From Nitrosopumilus sp. (GTDB taxonomy: Archaea; Thermoproteota; Nitrososphaeria; Nitrososphaerales; Nitrosopumilaceae), in assembly GCA_965207075.1 (NCBI GenBank), contig CBDBLO010000002.1:480001-544000 (forward strand): a DNA stretch of 64,000 nucleotides, written 5' to 3'. The notes beneath the pieces are model-generated. The model worked only from the letters and a program-made list of their open reading frames with translations. It was not told the origin of the DNA and searched no databases. The position numbers and the translations under genes were made by a program. Below, piece after piece: positions 44,971-54,899 of the stretch. Every line of letters begins with the position of its first letter. Position 1 is the stretch's first letter.

Positions 44971-46170
44971 ATGACAGAAAAGGGAATACTGGCGTTCTCC
45001 GGGGGACTCGACACGTCGGTGGTGGTAAAGTACCTGCAGGAGGAGCACGGCCTTGACGTCGTTACGGTGACCGTCGACGTGGGCCAGAACGACGACAAGC
45101 GGGCCATAGCTGCAAAGGCAAAGAGCTTGGGGGTCAGGAGGCACTACAGCATCGACGCTAGGTCGGAGTTTGTCACAAACTATGTGTTTCCCGCAATAAA
45201 GGCAAACGCCCTGTACCAGGGCAAGTACTGCCTTGCAACCGCGCTTGCGAGGCCGCTGATTGCGCAAAAGGTGCTGGAAGTTGCAAGAAAGGAGAACGTC
45301 TCGGCGCTCGCCCACGGGTGCACCGGCAAGGGAAACGACCAGGTCAGGTTTGACCTGGCGCTCCGATCGGGATCCGACCTGCCCATAATCGCCCCGATCA
45401 GGGAGAAGAACCTTGACCGGGCGGCCGAGCTGGAGTTTGCCCGCAAGCGCGGGATAAAGATAGAGACCGTCGCAAAGAGGTACAGCATAGACCAGAACCT
45501 GTGGGGGCGCGCAATAGAGGGCGGGGACATCGAGGATCCGTACGCGGAGCCGCCGGACAGCGCGTTTGCCTGGGTCCGCACGCGGGACATGCCGGACAGC
45601 CCCACGTACGTCGAGATATCCTTTGAGCGCGGCGTCCCCACCAAGATAGACGGAAGAAGGATGGGGCCGCGGAGGATTATAGAGCACCTCAACGAGAAGG
45701 CCGGCAGGGCGGGGGTCGGCATAGTGGATCACATAGAGGACCGCACGGTGGGCATAAAGTCCCGCGAGATATACGAGACCCCTGCGGCGGCATGCCTCAT
45801 AGAGGCGCACACGGACCTCGAGAAGATGGTGCATACGGGCCGCACGGGCAGGTTCAAAAGGACGATCGACGCGGAGTGGGCGTACCTGGCGTATGCGGGC
45901 CTGTGGCAGGATCCCCTCAGGGAGTGCCTGGACGCGTTCATCAACGCGTCGCAGGAGCCCGTGACGGGAACCGTCAGGCTCAGGCTATACAAGGGCAGCC
46001 TCCGGGTGGTGGGCCGCAAGTCCAAAAACTCGCTGTACGACCAGAGGAGGTCAACATACGGGACAGGCTCGACCTTTGATCAGAGGATGGCGGCGGGGTT
46101 CGTCGAGATATGGGGCATGCAGCTTACAGAAGCTAATAAATTACAAGAGGCAAGGGCAGAAAAATCATGA
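44971..46170 (+). CDS. argG: Argininosuccinate synthase
   Basis: AFSGGLDTS, HGCTGKGNDQVRF, SIDQNLWGR and GIKSREIYE motifs. Confidence 0.98.
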   Translation: MTEKGILAFSGGLDTSVVVKYLQEEHGLDVVTVTVDVGQNDDKRAIAAKAKSLGVRRHYSIDARSEFVTNYVFPAIKANALYQGKYCLATALARPLIAQKVLEVARKENVSALAHGCTGKGNDQVRFDLALRSGSDLPIIAPIREKNLDRAAELEFARKRGIKIETVAKRYSIDQNLWGRAIEGGDIEDPYAEPPDSAFAWVRTRDMPDSPTYVEISFERGVPTKIDGRRMGPRRIIEHLNEKAGRAGVGIVDHIEDRTVGIKSREIYETPAAACLIEAHTDLEKMVHTGRTGRFKRTIDAEWAYLAYAGLWQDPLRECLDAFINASQEPVTGTVRLRLYKGSLRVVGRKSKNSLYDQRRSTYGTGSTFDQRMAAGFVEIWGMQLTEANKLQEARAEKS

Positions 46171-46334
46171 ACTGTCCGGAATGCGACGCAGAACTCGGCA
46201 TACCAGATGACGCCGACACGGGCGAGATAATATCGTGCCCCGACTGCGGAGCCGATTATGAGATTGCAGGCAGGGACGGCTCAGACGTCAAGCTAAAGCA
46301 GGCAGAGACAGTGGGTGAAGACTGGGGAGAGTAG
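46167..46334 (+). CDS. lysW: Amino-group carrier protein LysW/ArgW, copy 1 (ends EDWGE; not in the ORF track)
   Basis: Manual translation MNCPECDAELGIPDDADTGEIISCPDCGADYEIAGRDGSDVKLKQAETVGEDWGE. Confidence 0.95.
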   Translation: MNCPECDAELGIPDDADTGEIISCPDCGADYEIAGRDGSDVKLKQAETVGEDWGE

Positions 46335-46340
46335 CAGGCG

Positions 46341-47225
46341 ATGACGAGGCTCTGCATTGCCTTTGACCGCCTGAGGGCCGAGGAGAAGATGCTAAAGTCG
46401 GAGGCCGAGTCGCTCGGCTGCCGGGTCCTGATGCTGGATGCAAAGACTGCCGTATCGGCCACCGACTCTGTTCCGGGGGACGTCATACCCGGCGGATGCG
46501 ACATCGTACTTGAGCGATGCGTCAGCTATTTCAGGGGGCTGCACATGACGTCCGTGCTCGAGTCGCTGGACGTGCGCGTGATAAACGCGTACGTAGTGGC
46601 CGCCGCATGCGGAAACAAGATGGTAATGACCCTCAGGCTCAGGAGGGCCGGCGTGCCCACCCCCAAGACGCACTTTGCGTTCTCGGCCGAGGCTGCGGAG
46701 AATATCATGAAGGATGCTGGGTACCCCCTCGTGATAAAGCCGGTGGTGGGCAGCTGGGGGAGGGGCGTCATCCCGATAAGGGGCCCCGACACGCTTGCCG
46801 CCGTACTGGAGGCAAGGTCGGTGACCGACGGCCCGTTTGACCGGATATTCTACCTGCAGGAGGTGATACGGCGATCCGAGGACGCGGAGGGCCGGACGCG
46901 CGACATACGGGTCATTACGGTGGGCGGCGAGCCGGTATCGGCCATGTACAGGATGTCGGCGGGCGGGGGCTTTAGGGCCAACCTGGCCCTGGGCGGCGAC
47001 CCGGTCGCCTGCAGCATGACGCCCGAGATGGCCGAGCTGGCGTCGGCCGCGTCAGATGCTGTGGGCGGCGGCATACTGGGGGTCGACATGATGGAGAGGG
47101 AGGACGGCCGCCTGGTGGTCCACGAGGTGAACAATACCGTGGAGTTCAAGGGGCTCTCAAAGGTCTCAGAGAGAAACATCCCAAAGGCCATGGTGCAGTT
47201 TGCCGTAGACGCTGCAAGAAAGTGA
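46341..47225 (+). CDS. argX: RimK-family ATP-grasp ligase, ArgX-like (LysW-glutamate ligase)
   Basis: KPVVGSWGRG and HEVNNTVEF; the loop FRANLALGG resembles ArgX, and the gene follows argG. Confidence 0.75.
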   Translation: MTRLCIAFDRLRAEEKMLKSEAESLGCRVLMLDAKTAVSATDSVPGDVIPGGCDIVLERCVSYFRGLHMTSVLESLDVRVINAYVVAAACGNKMVMTLRLRRAGVPTPKTHFAFSAEAAENIMKDAGYPLVIKPVVGSWGRGVIPIRGPDTLAAVLEARSVTDGPFDRIFYLQEVIRRSEDAEGRTRDIRVITVGGEPVSAMYRMSAGGGFRANLALGGDPVACSMTPEMAELASAASDAVGGGILGVDMMEREDGRLVVHEVNNTVEFKGLSKVSERNIPKAMVQFAVDAARK

Positions 47226-47322
47226 TTATATGTATCGCGGGCGCGTGCGCCGGCGCGCGGGAACCGCGCGGAGAATGCCCCGCGGTGCAGGACATAAATT
47301 ATCCCGCGCGGAGCGCGCCTGC

Positions 47323-48372
47323 ATGGTAAAGGTCGGCGTCGTGGGCGCGTCAGGGTACGTTGGCGGTGAGACCCTCAGGCTGCTCGTCACGCACCCGAAG
47401 GCGGAGATCATGATGGTGACGTCCAGGCAGCACGTGGGCGAGTACCTGCACAGGGTGCAGCCGAGCCTCAAGGGGTTCACCGATCTGGTGTTCTCCGAGA
47501 TGGACTATGACAGGGTGGCCGACAAGTGCGACCTGGTATTCACGGCGGTCCCGCACGGGACGGCCACTGAGATTGTAAAGGCGCTGTACGACCGCGGCGT
47601 CAAGATAATAGACCTGAGCGCGGACTACAGGCTGCACGACCAGGAGGGATACGACAAGTGGTACGGGTGGGAGCACCCGCACCCGGACTATCTCCCCAAG
47701 TCCGTATACGGCGTGCCGGAGCTCCACCGGGACGCCATAAGGGACGCGCAGCTGGTGTCCTGCCCCGGATGCATGGCAGTCACCTCGATGCTGGCGCTCG
47801 CGCCGCTGGTCAAGAACGACATTATAGACACCGACCACGTCGTGGTGGACTCCAAGATAGGCTCGTCGGGGGCCGGCTCGGGCTCGGGAACCGCCCATGC
47901 GATGAGGGCCGGCGTCATCAGGCCCTACAAGCCCGCAAAGCACAGGCATACCGGCGAGATCGAGCAGGAGCTCAGCGAGGTTGCGGGGCGCAAGATCAGG
48001 GTGTCGATGTCCCCGCATGCAGTCGACGTCGTCAGGGGCATACTGTGCACCAACCACACGTTCCTGACAAAAGACGTGAACGAGAGGGATCTGTGGAAGA
48101 TATACCGCTCGGCATATGGCGACGAAAAGTTCGTGAGGCTCATACGCGACAAGAAGGGGCTCTACAAGTTCCCCGACCCAAAGTTCTTGGTGGGCTCGAA
48201 CTTTTGCGACATCGGGTTTGACATAGACGAGGACAACGGCAGGCTGGTGTCCCTCTCGGCATCCGACAACCTCATGAAGGGGGCTGCCGGTTCCGCCATA
48301 CAGAACATGAACGTCATGTGCGGCTTTGACGAGTCCGAAGGGCTGCTCCACACGCCACTGACCCCGGTCTGA
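47323..48372 (+). CDS. lysY: LysW-aminoadipyl/glutamyl-phosphate reductase (LysY/ArgC)
   Basis: GASGYVG, DLSADYRL, YGVPEL, PGC and DNLMKGAAG. Start placed at ATG 47323. Confidence 0.93.
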   Translation: MVKVGVVGASGYVGGETLRLLVTHPKAEIMMVTSRQHVGEYLHRVQPSLKGFTDLVFSEMDYDRVADKCDLVFTAVPHGTATEIVKALYDRGVKIIDLSADYRLHDQEGYDKWYGWEHPHPDYLPKSVYGVPELHRDAIRDAQLVSCPGCMAVTSMLALAPLVKNDIIDTDHVVVDSKIGSSGAGSGSGTAHAMRAGVIRPYKPAKHRHTGEIEQELSEVAGRKIRVSMSPHAVDVVRGILCTNHTFLTKDVNERDLWKIYRSAYGDEKFVRLIRDKKGLYKFPDPKFLVGSNFCDIGFDIDEDNGRLVSLSASDNLMKGAAGSAIQNMNVMCGFDESEGLLHTPLTPV

Positions 48373-48575
48373 CCGCCTACGGGCCGGCGTTCGGCGGCAG
48401 GAACCGCATGCAGGCCCTGCCGGCGCGGTGCGCGTGGGACTTTGTGACGGCGCGTACTGCAAGAAGAATACCCGCCATGAGTCCGAGGCAGCATGCCGCA
48501 ACCACGTGCCCCGTATCTGTAGCCAAGGTGTACGCACCGTTATTATTGACGGCGCGGCGGGGGACACAATAGAAG

Positions 48576-49376
48576 ATGATCACCATAAAGATCGGAGGAA
48601 GCGTGGTCGACGAGATGCATCCGTCGGCCGTGTCCGACATCAAGAAGGTGGCCGAATGCGAGAGCGTCATTATAGTCCACGGCGGCGGCAAAGCCGTGAC
48701 AAGCGTATGCGAGCAGATGGGAAGCGAGCCCAGGTTTGTGACCTCCCCGAGCGGGATCAGGAGCCGGTACACCGACAGGGAGACTGCACGCATATTCACG
48801 ATGGTAATGTCCGGAATGGTGAACAAGGAGATAGTCAGGCTGCTCCAGCAGAACGGGATAAACGCGGTCGGGCTCTCCGGGGCAGACGCCCGCACCATAA
48901 GGGCGAAGCGCAAAAAGAGGCTCATAATAGTAAACGAAAAGGGGCGCAAGCAGGCGATCGACGGCGGGTATACGGGCAAGATATCGGAGATAAACTCGGG
49001 GTTCATCAAGGGCCTGCTCGGGCAGGGAATCGTCCCGGTGATATCGCCAGTCGCCATAAGCGAGGAGTACGAGATGCTCAACGTCGACGGCGACAGGGCC
49101 GCGGCAAACGTGGCAGGAGCCACCGGATCCGACAAGGTGCTCTTCATAACCAACGTGGACGGGCTGATGCTAGACGACAGGCTTGTGACAGGCATGTCGA
49201 GGCAGGAGGCGCGGGATGCAATGCCAAAGATAGGGCCCGGCATGGAGAAGAAGGTGCTGGCGTCTACCGAGGCCATCGACATGGGGGTCCGCACCGCGCT
49301 TATTGCAAGCGGGCGGCGCGAAAACCCCATATCAAGGGCCATAGCAGAAGAGAACTGCACGGTGATCAGGAAGTGA
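48576..49376 (+). CDS. lysZ: LysW-aminoadipate/glutamate kinase (LysZ/ArgB)
   Basis: IKIGGS, VHGGG, SRYTD, LNVDGDRAA and GMEKK motifs. Confidence 0.93.
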   Translation: MITIKIGGSVVDEMHPSAVSDIKKVAECESVIIVHGGGKAVTSVCEQMGSEPRFVTSPSGIRSRYTDRETARIFTMVMSGMVNKEIVRLLQQNGINAVGLSGADARTIRAKRKKRLIIVNEKGRKQAIDGGYTGKISEINSGFIKGLLGQGIVPVISPVAISEEYEMLNVDGDRAAANVAGATGSDKVLFITNVDGLMLDDRLVTGMSRQEARDAMPKIGPGMEKKVLASTEAIDMGVRTALIASGRRENPISRAIAEENCTVIRK

Positions 49377-50623
49377 CTGACAACAGCAGCAGCAACAGCA
49401 GCGGTGGCGGCGAGAGCGGCCGTGGCAATGACAGCAACAGCAGCATCCGCGCCGAGGACGCATACATGGGCGGGCTATACCAGAGGTTTCCCGTCACAAT
49501 CGAGAGGGGCCAGGGGGCAGAAGTGTGGGATACTGACGGCCGCCAGTACATAGACTGCATGGCAGGGTACGGGGTGGCGCTGCTGGGACACCGCAACAGG
49601 CGCGTCACGGACGCCATAACCGAGCAGGTAGGCAAGATAATCACGGTGCACAGCTCCCTGTACAACCCGACCCGGGAAAAATTCCTCGAAAAGATTACGG
49701 GGCTGGCGCCGGAGGGGCTAGGGCAGGTGCACCTCAACAACAGCGGGGCCGAGGCAGTCGAGGCCGCGATAAAGTTTGCAAAAAAGTACACGGGGCGCAA
49801 GAAAATGATAGCCATGAAGGGCTCGTACCATGGAAAGTCGCTGGGCGCGCTCTCGATCACGTTCGGCCCAAAGTACCGCAGGCCGTTCGAGCCCCTCGTC
49901 GAGGGGGCGGAGTTCACGCCATTCGGGGACGCCGACGCCCTGCGCCAGGCTGTGGACGACGACACCGCGTTTGTGATTATGGAACCCATCCAGGGCGAGA
50001 GCGGCATACACGTCGCGCCGCCCGGGTTCCTGCAGGAGGCAAGGCGCATATGCGACGAGCGCGGGGCCCTGTTGGTGTTTGACGAGATACAGGCCGGGCT
50101 CGGCAGGACTGGAAAGCTGTGGGCCTGCCAGCACTGGGGCGTGGCGCCGGACATACTGTGCCTTGCAAAGGGCATCGCCGGCGGCGTCCCGATGGGCGCC
50201 ACGCTTGCCAGGCCGGAGATAGTCGGAGCAATGTCGAAGGGGGAGCACTCCTCGACATTCGGGGGCAACCCCCTCTCGTGCGCGGCGGGCATCGCCACGC
50301 TGGACGCCCTGACGCAGGACGGCCTGGTAGAGAACTCTGCGGCGGTGGGCAAGGTATTTGCAGACGGGCTCCTGGGCCTCAAGGAGAGGCACCCCCGCAT
50401 GATCAGGGACGTGCGCGGCAGGGGCCTCATGATAGGCGTGGAGCTAAAGTTCGAGGTGAGGAGGATACTGGAGAGGCTGATGGACCGCGGCATACTGATG
50501 CTGTACTCGGGCAGGAACATACTGAGGATACTCCCGCCGCTTGTCATATCGGAGGGCCAGGCGGCAAAGGTTTTAGACGGGCTCGACGCCGTACTGGCCG
50601 AGGAGCAAAGGGACAGGACGTGA
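49373..50623 (+). CDS. lysJ: LysW-semialdehyde aminotransferase (LysJ/ArgD)
   Basis: NSGAEAVEAAIK, EPIQGE, FDEIQAGLGRTG, AKGIAGG and TFGGNPL. GTG 49373 overlaps the lysZ stop codon. Confidence 0.93.
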   Translation: MTDNSSSNSSGGGESGRGNDSNSSIRAEDAYMGGLYQRFPVTIERGQGAEVWDTDGRQYIDCMAGYGVALLGHRNRRVTDAITEQVGKIITVHSSLYNPTREKFLEKITGLAPEGLGQVHLNNSGAEAVEAAIKFAKKYTGRKKMIAMKGSYHGKSLGALSITFGPKYRRPFEPLVEGAEFTPFGDADALRQAVDDDTAFVIMEPIQGESGIHVAPPGFLQEARRICDERGALLVFDEIQAGLGRTGKLWACQHWGVAPDILCLAKGIAGGVPMGATLARPEIVGAMSKGEHSSTFGGNPLSCAAGIATLDALTQDGLVENSAAVGKVFADGLLGLKERHPRMIRDVRGRGLMIGVELKFEVRRILERLMDRGILMLYSGRNILRILPPLVISEGQAAKVLDGLDAVLAEEQRDRT

Positions 50624-50657
50624 CTATGATGGCAACGACGCGAACCGCGCGGGAGGC

Positions 50658-51095
50658 GTGCCGCTGATGGCGCAGCCGCCCGGCGACAGGATAGACAGGG
50701 ACATAATACGCGCGCTCAGGGCCAACTCGCGCGAGTCGTTTGTCGATCTGGGAAAAGAGATGGGCCTCTCCGAGTCGGCCATACGCCGGCGAGTCAGGAA
50801 CCTGCTTGACGCGAAGGTAATCTCGAGGTTCACCATCGAGATGGGGGAGTCGGATCAGACTAGCGCCATAGTGCTCGCGTCGCTCGACTCTACCACGGAC
50901 AACTCAAGGGTGGCCGCCCGGCTGGCAAAGCTGGAGGAGGTGCAGGTAGTGTACGAGATCACGGGCCAGTACGACATTGCAGCAGTAATCAGCGCCCCGA
51001 ACATGGCCGACATCAACAGTGCGATTGACACGCTTAGAAAGATACGCGGCGTGACCGACACGAATACCGTGATAATACTCAACAAGGTAACATAG
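50658..51095 (+). CDS. lysM: Lrp/AsnC transcriptional regulator (LysM-like)
   Basis: HTH LSESAIRRRV and RAM domain YEITGQYD; located inside the lys cluster. Confidence 0.85.
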   Translation: MPLMAQPPGDRIDRDIIRALRANSRESFVDLGKEMGLSESAIRRRVRNLLDAKVISRFTIEMGESDQTSAIVLASLDSTTDNSRVAARLAKLEEVQVVYEITGQYDIAAVISAPNMADINSAIDTLRKIRGVTDTNTVIILNKVT

Positions 51096-51208
51096 ACGAT
51101 ATCCGCCTTGGATGTCTACGCATGTGCCGAATATCGTCTTGATATAGTATGATATCATCGAATCATGTACGATTATGCTTATATTCCCATGATCGGACAT
51201 CGTCACAC

Positions 51209-52489
51209 ATGGCAAGGAGGAAGGCGCAGCCCGCGGCGGGCAAGAGGACCGCGCCGAGGACCGGACAGTCCGCGCCGCAGGAGGCCGACCCCAACGCCCA
51301 CGCGTACTCTTACAATGCGCGGGGGCTGGAGGAGAGGACGGGCCGGCCCGCCGGGGACGGCGGGGGCGGAAAGATACGCGTCCTTGACAGCACCCTGAGG
51401 GAGGGCGAGCAGCATCCCGGGGTCTCGTTTACAAACAAGCAGCGGATCCAGATCGCGTGGATGCTGGACTACTTTGGGGTTGACCAGATAGAGATATCGC
51501 CCGTGATATCCGACGACCACAGGGAGGCCACTAAGACCATCATAAAGCAGGGGCTGCAGGCCGACATAGTGTCGCACGGCAGGGCCATCAGGGAGGACAT
51601 CGACGTGTCGATCGGATGCGACGCAAAGTGGTGCGCCGCGTACCTCGGGGTATCCGACGTCCACCTCCGCGACAAGCTCCGCATAACGCGCCAGGAGGCA
51701 GCGCGGCGCGCAGTCGACACCGTGGAGTATGCAAAAAAGCACGGGCTGAGCATCAGGTTTACCGTGGAGGACGGCAGCAGGGCAGACCCCGAGTTCCTCA
51801 TGTCGCTGTGCAGGCAGATAGAGGAGGCAAAGGTGGACAGGATCAGCCTGCCGGACACGGTGGGGATAATGCACCCGGCCGGAATGTACGAGTTTGTAAA
51901 GTACGTGAGAAGCGAGATCAGCGTGCCGCTTGACGTCCACGTCCACAACGACATGGGGCTTGCAGTGGCAAACGCCCTGTCCGCGTGCGATGCGGGGGTC
52001 GACCAGATACACACTACCATTGACGGGATTGGCGAGAGGACGGGCATACCGCCGCTGGCAGAAGTGGCCGTGGCCCTCACGTACCTGTACGGCTCGGGCA
52101 ACGACTTTAGGCTCGACATGCTGCAGGACCTCTCAAGGCTGATCGAGGACTATACCGGCATGCCCCCGTACGACTCAAAGCCGGTGGTGGGATCGTCGGC
52201 GTACAAGCACAAGGCCGGCACGCACCTGGCCGCCATACTGAGAAATCCCGCCGCTTACGAGCCCATACCCCCGAGAGCGGTGGGCAACAGGAGGAGGATA
52301 GTGTTCGGCGGGCTGGCGGGAAAGACCGGCGCCGCGTACCTGATGTCCCTGCTGGGACTCGAGACGTCGGGAGGCGACAAGCAGGCGAGGGCCGTGGCGG
52401 CGGGACTCAAGGGGCTCGGACTGGGTGACCTGATCGACCTGCCCGTCGACGACAGGCTTGAGAGGAAGATGACAGGCACGGACAAGTAG
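51209..52489 (+). CDS. Homocitrate synthase / LeuA-family DRE-TIM enzyme
   Basis: DSTLREGEQ, PDTVG, HVHNDMG, GIGERTG and HKAGTH; lys cluster context. Confidence 0.85.
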   Translation: MARRKAQPAAGKRTAPRTGQSAPQEADPNAHAYSYNARGLEERTGRPAGDGGGGKIRVLDSTLREGEQHPGVSFTNKQRIQIAWMLDYFGVDQIEISPVISDDHREATKTIIKQGLQADIVSHGRAIREDIDVSIGCDAKWCAAYLGVSDVHLRDKLRITRQEAARRAVDTVEYAKKHGLSIRFTVEDGSRADPEFLMSLCRQIEEAKVDRISLPDTVGIMHPAGMYEFVKYVRSEISVPLDVHVHNDMGLAVANALSACDAGVDQIHTTIDGIGERTGIPPLAEVAVALTYLYGSGNDFRLDMLQDLSRLIEDYTGMPPYDSKPVVGSSAYKHKAGTHLAAILRNPAAYEPIPPRAVGNRRRIVFGGLAGKTGAAYLMSLLGLETSGGDKQARAVAAGLKGLGLGDLIDLPVDDRLERKMTGTDK

Positions 52490-52497
52490 TTCGGGGC

Positions 52498-52546
52498 AGA
52501 GAAGAAGAAGAAGAAGAAGAAGGAGGAGGAGGAGGAGGAGGAGGAG
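52498..52546. repeat. Purine microsatellite (GAA)n-(GGA)n
   Basis: Read directly between hcs and lysW copy 2. Confidence 0.95.
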
Positions 52547-52645
52547 AGAAAGCATGGACGGCATGCGACAAATCCGGCGCGCAACACGACTCCGTCCTTC
52601 TGACGGATCGCAACTGTGATAAACACGTAATGGGAGACTGGATGC

Positions 52646-52813
52646 ATGTCAAACTGCGAGGAATGCGATGCAGAGATCCCCGTTCCGGCCGATGCGTTAG
52701 AGGGAGAGATTGTTACGTGCCCCGAATGCGGCGCAAGCTTTGAGCTTAAGACTGGTGCGAACGGTTTTGATCTCAGGCCAGCTCAGACGGTCGGCGAGGA
52801 TTGGGGGCAGTGA
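52646..52813 (+). CDS. lysW: Amino-group carrier protein LysW, copy 2 (ends EDWGQ; not in the ORF track)
   Basis: Manual translation MSNCEECDAEIPVPADALEGEIVTCPECGASFELKTGANGFDLRPAQTVGEDWGQ. Confidence 0.93.
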   Translation: MSNCEECDAEIPVPADALEGEIVTCPECGASFELKTGANGFDLRPAQTVGEDWGQ

Positions 52814-53712
52814 ATCCTGACATTACCGTTCTTTATGATACCATCCGATGGGAGGAAAAAGCCCTATTGGAGGCAGGCAGGAAGGCGGACATCAACGTAC
52901 GCATGCTTGATTGCAGAAGCCTAGCGCTGGACATCGGGTCGGGAGGCGGCGGTGGCAACAGCCACGATGGCGGCGGCGCCCAGCACACGGATCCCGCCTC
53001 CGAGTACGGGACCATACTGCAGAGATGCGTCAGCTACTACAGAAACCTCCACTCTACTGCCGCCCTCGAGGGGCTGGGCGCCAGGGTGGTCAACTGCCTG
53101 CAGACCGGCATCTTGGCGGGAAACAAGCTCTTCACCCACATGCTCCTTGCAAGGGCCGGCGTGCGGACGCCGCGCGCGACGGTGGCGTTCTCAAAGGATG
53201 CGGCCCTGTCGCACTTGAGGGAGACCGGCCTTCCGGCCGTGATCAAGCCGACAGTCGGCAGCTGGGGCAGGCTGGTCTCAAAGCTGACCGACATGGACGC
53301 GGCAGAAGGGATCATAGAGGGAAGGGAGTCCATGTATCCGATACACCACACCCACTACCTGGAGGAGTTCGTCAAGAGGCCCCCGAGGGACATCAGGGCC
53401 ATCGTGGTCGGGGACGAGGTCGTGGCGGCCATATACAGGACGTCGGAGGGGGACAACTGGAAGACCAATACGGCGCTCGGCGGCAGGGCCGACCCGTGCA
53501 AGGTGACGCAGGAGATGGAGCGTATATGCGCAAAGGCAAAGGAGGCCGTGCACGGCGACATAGTCGGGGTGGACCTCATGGAGGACGAGTCGCGCGGACT
53601 TGTGGTGCATGAGATAAACAACACGACGGAGTACAAGAACACCGTCAGGGTATGCAACGTGGACATACCGAAGATGATGCTAGAGTTTGCTGTAAGAGAG
53701 CAGAGGAAGTGA
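52810..53712 (+). CDS. lysX: Alpha-aminoadipate-LysW ligase
   Basis: YDTIRWEEK, KPTVGSWGR, AAIYR...WKTNTALGG (LysX-type) and HEINNTTE. Confidence 0.85.
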   Translation: MNPDITVLYDTIRWEEKALLEAGRKADINVRMLDCRSLALDIGSGGGGGNSHDGGGAQHTDPASEYGTILQRCVSYYRNLHSTAALEGLGARVVNCLQTGILAGNKLFTHMLLARAGVRTPRATVAFSKDAALSHLRETGLPAVIKPTVGSWGRLVSKLTDMDAAEGIIEGRESMYPIHHTHYLEEFVKRPPRDIRAIVVGDEVVAAIYRTSEGDNWKTNTALGGRADPCKVTQEMERICAKAKEAVHGDIVGVDLMEDESRGLVVHEINNTTEYKNTVRVCNVDIPKMMLEFAVREQRK

Positions 53713-54899
53713 CGCATGTGGATTCGCCGGCAACAGAGGAAGCAACGACGATGCGGGACGCGACGGCACCTGTTGCAGAAAGATACGAGACTAGGATGCT
53801 CAAAGAGGCCCTCAACCTGTATACGCTCTCCAAGCACGAGGGGCCCATGGCGGAGTTCCTGGTCGCAAAGTGCGGCGAGCTGGGGTTCGAGGACGTCCGA
53901 GTCGACGAGGTGGGAAACGTCATTGCCAAGAGGGGGAGCGGCTCGCCCAACATCATACTGTGCGGGCACATGGACGTAGTGCCCGGAAAGGTGCCGGTCC
54001 GGGTAGAGGGAGATTGCATGTACGGACGCGGGGCGTCTGACGCAAAGGCCCCCCTGATGGCTATGCTCTTTGCAGCCGCCGGAATGCCGGAGGGCAGCGG
54101 CACCATAACGTTTGTCGGCGCCATAGACGAGGAGGGAAACGCGACTGGGATCAAGAACCTGGTACAGGAGAGGATGGACGCCGACTATGCCATATTCGGC
54201 GAGCCAAGCGGCATCAGGCAGGTCACAATAGCGTACAAGGGAAGGCTTGCCATAAACCTCCGGGTGCGCTCAAAGGACAGCTCGCACGCAAGCGCGCCGT
54301 GGCTCTCAAAGAACGCCATCACCGAGTCCATGGCCTTTGCGACAAAGCTCAAGGAGGAGCTGGAGGGCGGCCAAGAGGGAAAGAGCAAGGGGGCCATACT
54401 GACTGCCACCATAACGATGATCAAGGGCGGCACGAGCCACAACGTCACGCCCTCTGAGTGCGAGACGATATTTGACATCCGGATACCGGTGGGCGGCAGC
54501 TGCAAGGAGACCGAGCGGCGGGTCGCGACCCTGGTCCGCGAGGCCGGCCGGCAGCTCGGGGTCGACCCGTTCTATTCCATACTGGACGAGACCGAGCCCT
54601 TTGAGGCCCCGCACAACTCGCCTCTGGTCAGGGCCTTTACACTAGGCATACTGGAGATGGAAGACGAGCGCCCGCTGCTTGTCCGAAAGACCGGGACGGG
54701 CGACATGAACGTGCTCGGATACCAGTGGAAGATACCCGTCGTGACGTACGGCCCCGGCGATCCGCACGAGTCACACACGAGAGACGAAAAGGTGTCGATA
54801 ACCGAATACCTCCGGGGGATCGAGATACTAAAGGTGACCCTCAAAAAGCTAAAGGTCCTTCACGACAAAAAGGTGGCAAGAGAGGCGAGGTCGGGGTAA
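53709..54899 (+). CDS. lysK: LysW-lysine/ornithine hydrolase (LysK/ArgE, M20 peptidase)
   Basis: GHMDVV, GRGASDAK, DEE, GEPSG, KTGTGDMN and YGPGD motifs. The start is 53709 or 53751. Confidence 0.92.
   Translation: MTHVDSPATEEATTMRDATAPVAERYETRMLKEALNLYTLSKHEGPMAEFLVAKCGELGFEDVRVDEVGNVIAKRGSGSPNIILCGHMDVVPGKVPVRVEGDCMYGRGASDAKAPLMAMLFAAAGMPEGSGTITFVGAIDEEGNATGIKNLVQERMDADYAIFGEPSGIRQVTIAYKGRLAINLRVRSKDSSHASAPWLSKNAITESMAFATKLKEELEGGQEGKSKGAILTATITMIKGGTSHNVTPSECETIFDIRIPVGGSCKETERRVATLVREAGRQLGVDPFYSILDETEPFEAPHNSPLVRAFTLGILEMEDERPLLVRKTGTGDMNVLGYQWKIPVVTYGPGDPHESHTRDEKVSITEYLRGIEILKVTLKKLKVLHDKKVAREARSG

Follow-up and report, generated by a model that had tools for sequence, protein, structure and literature searches.

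The stretch of Nitrosopumilus sp. DNA analyzed here (64,000 nucleotides of contig CBDBLO010000002.1, positions 480,001 to 544,000, in the following called the window) encodes two small amino-group carrier proteins of the LysW/ArgW type. The one belonging to the lysine branch was found to be encoded with glutamine (Gln, Q) in place of the C-terminal glutamate (Glu, E), which is regarded as the functional hallmark of amino-group carrier proteins. Genome comparisons show that this Gln is real, selected, widespread and interchanged with Glu, and from this we infer a deamidation step and an enzyme that performs it. The explanation that we favor, with a probability of about one half, is that the protein is a functional pro-carrier whose Gln would be hydrolyzed to Glu before the canonical loading of the gamma-carboxyl group. 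Judged by analogy, such a maturation would be convergent with that of the Gln-ended form of Pup (PupQ) by the enzyme Dop.

The lysine-branch carrier gene (copy 2, 52646..52813, + strand, as for all features of the window described below) codes for 55 amino acids. Its final codons are GAG GAT TGG GGG CAG TGA, translated as ...TVGEDWGQ, with the Gln codon CAG at 52808..52810 and the stop codon at 52811-52813, and the in-frame GTG of lysX (52810-52812) overlaps both of them. The other carrier gene (copy 1, ArgW/LysW type, 46167..46334), also coding for 55 amino acids, ends with GGT GAA GAC TGG GGA GAG TAG, that is, GEDWGE. An earlier note, made from the sequence of this stretch, had pointed out the two lysW paralogs, their EDWGE and EDWGQ ends and the overlap of the second stop codon with the lysX GTG, and it was right in every detail. 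According to PMC10433800, the LysX and ArgX ligases couple aminoadipate or glutamate, through its amino group, to the carrier, whose C-terminal Glu provides the gamma-carboxyl. The Gln side chain has no carboxylate, therefore this canonical activation is impossible on the primary translation product; here, too, the earlier note was correct, the attachment residue being encoded as Gln.

Both proteins match the carrier model NF041070 above its cut-off of 75 (82.4 bits for copy 2 and 84.9 bits for copy 1), and copy 2 also matches PF21344 (E 3.4e-12). Copy 2 contains a zinc ribbon (CxxC...CxxC), of which C4, C7, C25 and C28 are invariant in 37 orthologs, as are the tail residues G50, E51, D52, W53 and G54. 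It can be aligned over its whole length with the solved LysW chains 3vpb_E and 3wwl_A, both of which end in EDWGE, the last residue being different. In addition to the zinc ribbon and the EDWG motif, an adjacent ligase with a GSWGR motif and the kinase, reductase, transaminase and hydrolase of the carrier pathway were found; what the gene does not encode is the C-terminal Glu for the cargo. By sequence and context copy 2 is a LysW-type carrier minus one defining feature, the encoded terminal Glu.

Contigs from four runs belonging to four studies, one of them a metatranscriptome library, were placed on positions 52600-53400 of the window. They span the bin 52789-52815 and show no difference at 52808-52813, the Gln codon being CAG, rather than GAG, in the contigs of all four runs. 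When 401 genomes of the window's class were scanned with a degenerate pattern for EDWGQ followed by a stop codon, 305 were positive, all of them within four of the 20 sampled families (219 of 223 genomes in family f1, 78 of 78 in f3, 6 of 10 in f2, 1 of 4 in f5 and 0 in 16 other families), so that the Gln is not private to one strain. These tallies, like that of the EDWGE pattern given below, include five unpublished genomes (G231, G132, G327 and G283 in f1, G365 in f3), on none of which any conclusion depends by itself; leaving them out, the Q pattern occurs in 300 of 396 genomes (f1 215/219, f3 77/77). A reversed-pattern control yielded 0 matches among the matches listed for the 401 genomes, and chance origin of the EDWGQ pattern is excluded. 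The corresponding EDWGE-stop pattern is present in 321 of the same 401 genomes.

Protein searches gave a similar picture. Among the best 120 of the 331 nearest protein clusters, 114 end in GEDWGQ and one in GEDWGE, and the five that extend past the motif look like read-through or fragment calls. A broad search covered 1.84 billion proteins; of its best 150 representatives, clustered at 50% identity, 89 end in EDWGE and 20 in EDWGQ, the remainder being motif variants, fragments and other zinc-ribbon proteins; the residue following the EDWG motif was solely E or Q in these representatives. The Gln codon is CAG in 80 and CAA in 25 of the unique carriers, and the Gly codon preceding it in the lysine-branch Q carriers is distributed over all four synonyms (29/23/18/11). 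Since synonymous positions are mixed while the Gln stays, selection acts at the amino-acid level. EDWGQ was found, among the matches listed, in species-representative records labeled Nitrosopumilus, Nitrosarchaeum, Nitrosotalea, Nitrosotenuis, Nitrosopelagicus, Nitrososphaera, Nitrosocosmicus and Nitrosocaldus. Nine bacterial EDWGQ matches among the first 80 loci were without a zinc ribbon and were discarded as chance matches.

Trivial explanations of the Gln were considered and rejected. A sequencing error or a private strain mutation, for which nothing was found, is contradicted by the agreement of the four-run contigs, by the protein clusters and by the genome and species-representative scans, and its probability is next to nil. 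The overlapping lysX start does not act as the constraint, because a GAG codon would still preserve the GTG, and Q carriers with a TAA or TAG stop codon, without overlap, are common. Frameshifting or read-through to a Glu end does not apply either: there is no such end in the other frames, and the stop context is not conserved.

A survey of the C-termini of LysW/ArgW pairs showed that the trait is conserved and that all four combinations of ends occur, that is, Gln on the lysine-branch carrier only, Gln on both carriers, Gln on the arginine-branch carrier only, and Glu on both. Most f1 genomes resemble the window in having one Q and one E carrier. In many f3 genera both carriers are Q-ended and no E carrier occurs, and some genomes have one Q carrier only; the non-Q families of the order have mostly two E carriers and other orders mostly one. 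Five genomes (G184, G235, G247, G122 and G279) encode GEDWGQ on the carriers of both the hcs-lysW-lysX-lysK and the argG-argW-argX-argC groups and have no match to the E pattern, and in G070, a genome of the window's own family, both carriers likewise end in Q. In G196 and in contig L115 the arrangement is opposite to that of the window, with LysW ending in E and ArgW in Q, and whole genera carry the Q on the arginine-branch carrier instead. Two genomes of the window's own genus (G131 and G354) have E on both carriers, with LysW proteins 80-82% identical to that of the window, and sister carriers in f2 differ at little besides the last residue. In the complete genomes G159 and G171 a lone carrier, Q-ended, lies inside hcs-lysW-lysX-lysK. 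These two genomes of genus g27 (family f3), each consisting of one contig and 99% complete, have the carrier at G159:C1:2017140-2017301 and G171:C1:2015121-2015282 (loci L178 and L179) and no argW match.

Taking into account the Q/Q and the reversed genomes, the Q cannot serve as a marker of the lysine branch. The proposal that Gln is a lysine-branch device for keeping lysine and arginine fluxes separate had to be abandoned, since Q/Q, reversed and E/E genomes occur in the same order. The trait also extends beyond the class: in a sample of Asgard archaea, zinc-ribbon carriers ending in EDWGQ were present in 10 of 201 genomes and fell into three sequence types. Seven of these loci, representing all three types, were examined, and lysX- and lysY-like genes follow the carrier in each. 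A Jordarchaeia record has the order lysW(Q)-lysX-lysY-lysZ-lysJ-lysK, with a second, E-ended carrier elsewhere in the genome. Genomes with only Gln-ended carriers must still make lysine, therefore the Gln form must enter the pathway. Judging from the Q-only genomes and the Asgard operons, Gln-ended carriers must be functional, and the sequences imply that some maturation step or a new attachment chemistry must exist for them.

To follow the E/Q changes, a FastTree tree was computed from 152 unique ligases encoded downstream of carriers (101 next to Q carriers and 51 next to E carriers, the set being enriched in Q because many loci were fetched by the Q pattern). Fitch parsimony requires at least eight E/Q changes, with E at the midpoint root. 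The changes are found in both the LysX and the ArgX clades, reversions are nested deep within Q clades, and the E-ended LysW proteins of G131 and G354 nest in the Q clade of the window's own genus. The ligases hardly follow these switches. The LysX proteins of an E-bearing and a Q-bearing sister are 93.3% identical. Fifty ligase columns are conserved to at least 94% next to E carriers, and 46 of them remain at 90% or more next to Q carriers. The four columns that relax in Q-partner ligases are C73, R78 (to K), V144 (to I) and F275 (to Y), and six E/Q sister contrasts had no consistent ligase substitution in common. Residues G150, S151, W152, G153 and R154 of the GSWGR motif, which recognizes the carrier tail, are invariant in 37 LysX sequences. 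A predicted complex of LysX (37-row alignment), LysW (36 rows), ATP and Mg scored 0.26, 0.31 and 0.30 against a mark of 0.32 and gave no contacts, so it bears on neither side.

The hydrolase behaves similarly, 54 of 59 conserved LysK columns being kept. The nine LysK positions with the clearest distinction between Q and E groups are identical in f2 relatives differing in E/Q, therefore they reflect phylogeny. In the genome of the window a single LysY, LysZ and LysK and one cluster LysJ serve both the E and the Q carrier, and in G184 and G235 one LysK serves two Q carriers. The LysK match of a further genome with a Q-type LysW (G116:C1:1238409-1239515, family f2) contains one in-frame TAG; a sequencing error and a broken gene are among the possible causes.

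Hydrolysis of the amide to yield a Glu-ended carrier is, as far as the sequences tell, the reading that needs the fewest changes. Copy 2 would be a working lysine-branch carrier made as a pro-form with an unloadable C-terminal Gln. A hydrolase would remove the side-chain amide once to give ...EDWGE, LysX would then activate the gamma-carboxyl with ATP and attach alpha-aminoadipate, the single LysZ, LysY and LysJ would convert the tethered cargo, and LysK would free the lysine and restore the Glu form. As LysK would regenerate the Glu form in each cycle, one slow deamidation in the lifetime of a carrier molecule would suffice. Of all residues, Gln alone can become Glu by hydrolysis, and we favor deamidation because only E and Q occur at the last position, because the two have been interchanged repeatedly in both directions, with independent switches in separate lineages, and because no consistent adaptation of ligase or hydrolase accompanies the switches, one set of downstream enzymes being used for E and Q carriers. 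The sharing of LysY, LysZ, LysK and LysJ is most simply understood if both carriers present the same gamma-glutamyl link. The prime candidate for the deamidase is LysK, since the gamma-glutamyl amide is also the bond that it cleaves in LysW-lysine, where lysine takes the place of ammonia as the leaving group; a dual role of this kind would resemble that of Dop towards Pup. Two CN_hydrolase genes of the nitrilase superfamily were noticed outside the window, at G000:C2:388221-388967 and G000:C2:1072807-1073424; as enzymes of this superfamily hydrolyze terminal amides, their products are alternative candidates.

A number of observations weigh against a deamidation step. No report of deamidase activity was found for LysK or any other M20 enzyme, and enzymes of the M20 family as a rule hold the leaving amino acid by its carboxylate, a group that ammonia does not have. 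The cluster does not include a dedicated deamidase gene, and a search of the 95.4%-complete genome of the window for homologs of CheD, the transglutaminase core and Pup ligase/Dop was negative (for PF03136, the Pup ligase/Dop family, the control Corynebacterium glutamicum was matched). The deamidation reading gives no reason why selection should retain Gln. The missing covariation and the E/Q interchange could likewise be expected of a ligase that accepts either end. The loci of the tree were largely fetched by the Q pattern, therefore the proportions in it are not prevalences, and related genomes are not independent observations.

A further point on the same side concerns a Cys residue of the ligases (Cys73 of the window's LysX, 53026-53028), located in a QRC motif. 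This Cys is conserved from Thermus LysX to archaeal LysX and ArgX and is kept in the window's own LysX. It is present in 50 of 51 E-carrier ligases, and it is lost in 37 of 101 Q-carrier ligases as compared with 1 of 51. The bias is strongest in ArgX, where the Cys is replaced in 22 of 23 Q-carrier but in 0 of 32 E-carrier enzymes; in Q-carrier LysX it is replaced in 15 of 78 and kept in 63. The replacing residues are S, V, E, N, M or T, and at least eight loss events are placed on a Q background as against one on an E background. This pattern hints that some ligases sense the E/Q difference, which would not be expected if the carrier were matured beforehand. We regard the loss of the Cys as a lead only, because the replacements are confined to family f3 plus one Asgard ligase and because Q tips outnumber E tips (101 and 51); it may be a lineage effect.

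Prior deamidation and use of the alpha-carboxyl had both been suggested in the earlier note and are both live, whereas its suggestion that copy 2 might be a decoy or regulator became very unlikely with the discovery of the Q-only genomes. That Gln-ended carriers of ammonia-oxidising and some Asgard archaea are loaded without first making Glu, either through the alpha-carboxyl or by direct activation of the amide, is possible, though we doubt it. If the alpha-carboxyl were used, LysX would phosphorylate the alpha-carboxylate of the terminal Gln and form an ordinary peptide bond to aminoadipate, the side-chain amide would occupy the usual place of the Glu alpha-carboxylate, and LysK would act as a carboxypeptidase. 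LysX fits the 'RimK family alpha-L-glutamate ligase' model, and the next-best models, MptN, S6 ligase and CofF, are all alpha-L-glutamate ligases. Glu and Gln are of equal length, so the two ends could conceivably swap in the pocket, and a pocket demanding isosteres would also predict that only E and Q occur at the last position. The loss of the QRC Cys, which lies beside a conserved Arg, almost only with Q carriers can be added to this side, but the Cys is kept in most of the Q-partner LysX proteins, and the E/Q swaps, including that between the 93.3%-identical LysX proteins, took place without consistent change of the ligase. Moreover, five enzymes would have to accept a link that is two atoms shorter and has no free alpha-carboxylate, and the LysZ, LysY, LysJ and LysK of the window must also handle the Glu-ended copy 1. 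In the haloarchaeon Natrinema the E54A variant of ArgW was non-functional and caused arginine auxotrophy (PMC10433800), therefore its ArgX evidently makes no use of the alpha-carboxyl of a terminal Ala. On balance, loading through the alpha-carboxyl is unlikely, and it is the rival to deamidation that deserves most attention.

Direct activation of the amide is improbable. LysX would in this case phosphorylate the side-chain amide oxygen, and water or the aminoadipate amine would displace ammonia or phosphate, no separate deamidase being needed. A precedent is the proposal, made in a paper on Dop, that the PupQ side-chain amide attacks ATP, as citrulline does in argininosuccinate synthesis (PMC8599861). 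The scheme requires no extra gene and fits the unchanged operons, but no ligase residue tracks the E/Q state consistently. Furthermore, we know of no ATP-grasp enzyme that phosphorylates a side-chain amide in this way, and aminolysis of a phospho-imidate normally leads to an amidine, not to an amide, as in amidotransferase chemistry. Still less credible is a role of copy 2 as a non-loadable decoy or regulator, with both ligases using copy 1. A Glu-ended copy is indeed available in the window, 6.3 kb upstream, but the genomes with two Gln carriers have no Glu-ended carrier for the ligases to use, only Gln-ended carriers are present in G184, G235, G247, G122, G279, G159 and G171, the zinc ligands and the EDWG tail are invariant and translational coupling to lysX is kept, and in whole genera the Q is on the arginine-branch carrier. 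Equally far-fetched is mistranslation, by which CAG would be read as Glu via unconverted Glu-tRNA-Gln. The indirect pathway, in which tRNA-Gln is first charged with Glu, is general in archaea, and the genome of the window has one amidase-family (GatA-like) gene, but a mechanism specific to one codon is not known, and the Gln codon is CAA in some carriers and CAG in others, with each of the three stop codons found behind them.

The carrier genes belong to a single arginine/lysine carrier-protein cluster occupying positions 44971-54899 of the window, with the gene order argG, carrier copy 1, argX, lysY/argC, lysZ/argB, lysJ/argD, a LysM-like regulator gene, an hcs-like gene, carrier copy 2, lysX and lysK. 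The arginine half opens with argG, coding for argininosuccinate synthase (44971..46170; NF001770 511.7 bits, cut-off 334). The argX-type ATP-grasp ligase gene (46341..47225) matches TIGR00768 with 224.8 bits (cut-off 143.4) and stays below the cut-off of TIGR02144 (247.5 bits, cut-off 275.6). The product of lysX (52810..53712) exceeds the latter (303.4 bits) and has retained the GSWGR motif (G150-R154); the two ATP-grasp ligases are 39-40% identical (tblastn), and the best solved relatives of LysX are 3vpd_A, 1uc8_A and 5k2m_A. The reductase gene lysY/argC (47230..48372; TIGR01850 411.2 bits) and lysZ/argB, for the [LysW]-aminoadipate/[LysW]-glutamate kinase (48576..49376; NF010662 287.8 bits, cut-off 194), gave a single tblastn match each and are the sole copies in the genome. 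For the lysJ/argD-type transaminase gene (49466..50623; TIGR00707 421.1 bits, cut-off 410) the start was set at an ATG within a longer open reading frame (48428..50623), and the remaining matches in the genome are at most 33% identical (tblastn).

An Lrp/AsnC-type regulator resembling LysM follows (50658..51095; Pfam PF01037 and PF13404; NF040947 165.6 bits, below the cut-off of 180). The lysine half opens with the homocitrate-synthase-like gene (51209..52489), which has HMGL-like and HCS_D2 domains (PF00682 and PF22617), scores below the cut-off of TIGR02146 (367.1 bits, cut-off 413.55) and has two paralogs elsewhere in the genome. The last gene, lysK, encodes an M20-type protein similar to [LysW]-lysine hydrolase (53652..54899; PF01546 and PF07687; TIGR01902 264.3 bits, cut-off 163.1; NF003367 276.8 bits, below the cut-off of 363). 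Its open reading frame begins at 53652, the likely start codon is the ATG at 53751, and it is also the sole copy (single tblastn match). The genome of 2.23 Mb thus has two carriers, two ligases and one each of lysY, lysZ, cluster lysJ and lysK. A weak third LysW match outside the window (G000:C2:1161999-1162091, locus L003; E 0.036), limited to residues 2-35, is likely to be an unrelated zinc ribbon.

Two repetitive elements were noticed in the lysine half. In the spacer between hcs and lysW, before copy 2, a perfect purine tract consisting of (AGA)x7.7 followed by (AGG)x8.7 was detected at 52500..52546 by Tandem Repeats Finder. LysX has a Gly-rich low-complexity insert at residues ~43-67 (window ~52935-53010); a related contig (run X7) has 9 extra bases behind 52967, therefore the length of the insert varies between strains.

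The Gln is encoded in 305 of 401 genomes, therefore lysine synthesis, and in many of the genomes arginine synthesis, contains a step that is absent from annotations and metabolic models. No occurrence of the string EDWGQ was found in the literature, a search outside which most subscription journals lay, and the literature pairing LysW with Thaumarchaeota, Nitrosopumilus, Nitrososphaera or glutamine yielded nothing on the terminal residue of LysW. The accessible part of a paper on a model of Nitrosopumilus maritimus names LysW without any mention of glutamine (PMC6038301). Should deamidation be true, it would provide a second, unrelated case of the PupQ/Dop logic, and the question why cells encode a pro-form would become accessible in a simple metabolic system. 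Another ligation chemistry, if true, would widen the known scope of ATP-grasp ligases and carrier pathways, and if loading took place without Glu being made, carrier-protein amino acid biosynthesis would have a second regiochemistry, at work in archaea that are among Earth's most abundant. Cultured strains with the trait exist, and direct testing is possible with recombinant proteins and mass spectrometry.

The closest parallel to the alternation of C-terminal residues is Pup. According to PMC8599861, the gene for Pup specifies a C-terminal Gln in some actinobacteria and a Glu in others, Dop deamidates PupQ before PafA phosphorylates the gamma-carboxylate, and the deamidase is at the same time the isopeptide-cleaving enzyme (depupylase). 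Orthologs alternating between C-terminal Gln and Glu are thus common to Pup and the LysW/ArgW carriers. In contrast, there is no homology between the two systems, the LysW system having an ATP-grasp ligase and an M20 metallopeptidase hydrolase; the partner of Pup is a protein lysine, that of LysW is a metabolite, and in LysW deamidation is what we infer. Among ATP-grasp enzymes, the alpha-L-glutamate ligases RimK, MptN and CofF come closest to LysX (for RimK, the solved chains 5zct and 4iwx). They activate a terminal alpha-carboxylate, as loading through the alpha-carboxyl would need, but their glutamate goes to ribosomal protein S6 or to cofactors, and they have no carrier cycle and no release enzyme. 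With the LysW/ArgW proteins of Thermus thermophilus, Sulfolobus/Sulfurisphaera, Thermococcus kodakarensis and Natrinema gari, copy 2 shares the zinc ribbon of about 55 amino acids, the acidic EDWG-x tail, the adjoining LysX/ArgX ligase with its GSWGR motif and the enzymes LysZ, LysY, LysJ and LysK. The difference lies in the last residue: every characterized LysW/ArgW, according to PMC10433800, ends in Glu, the gamma-carboxyl of which carries the cargo, whereas copy 2 is encoded with Gln.

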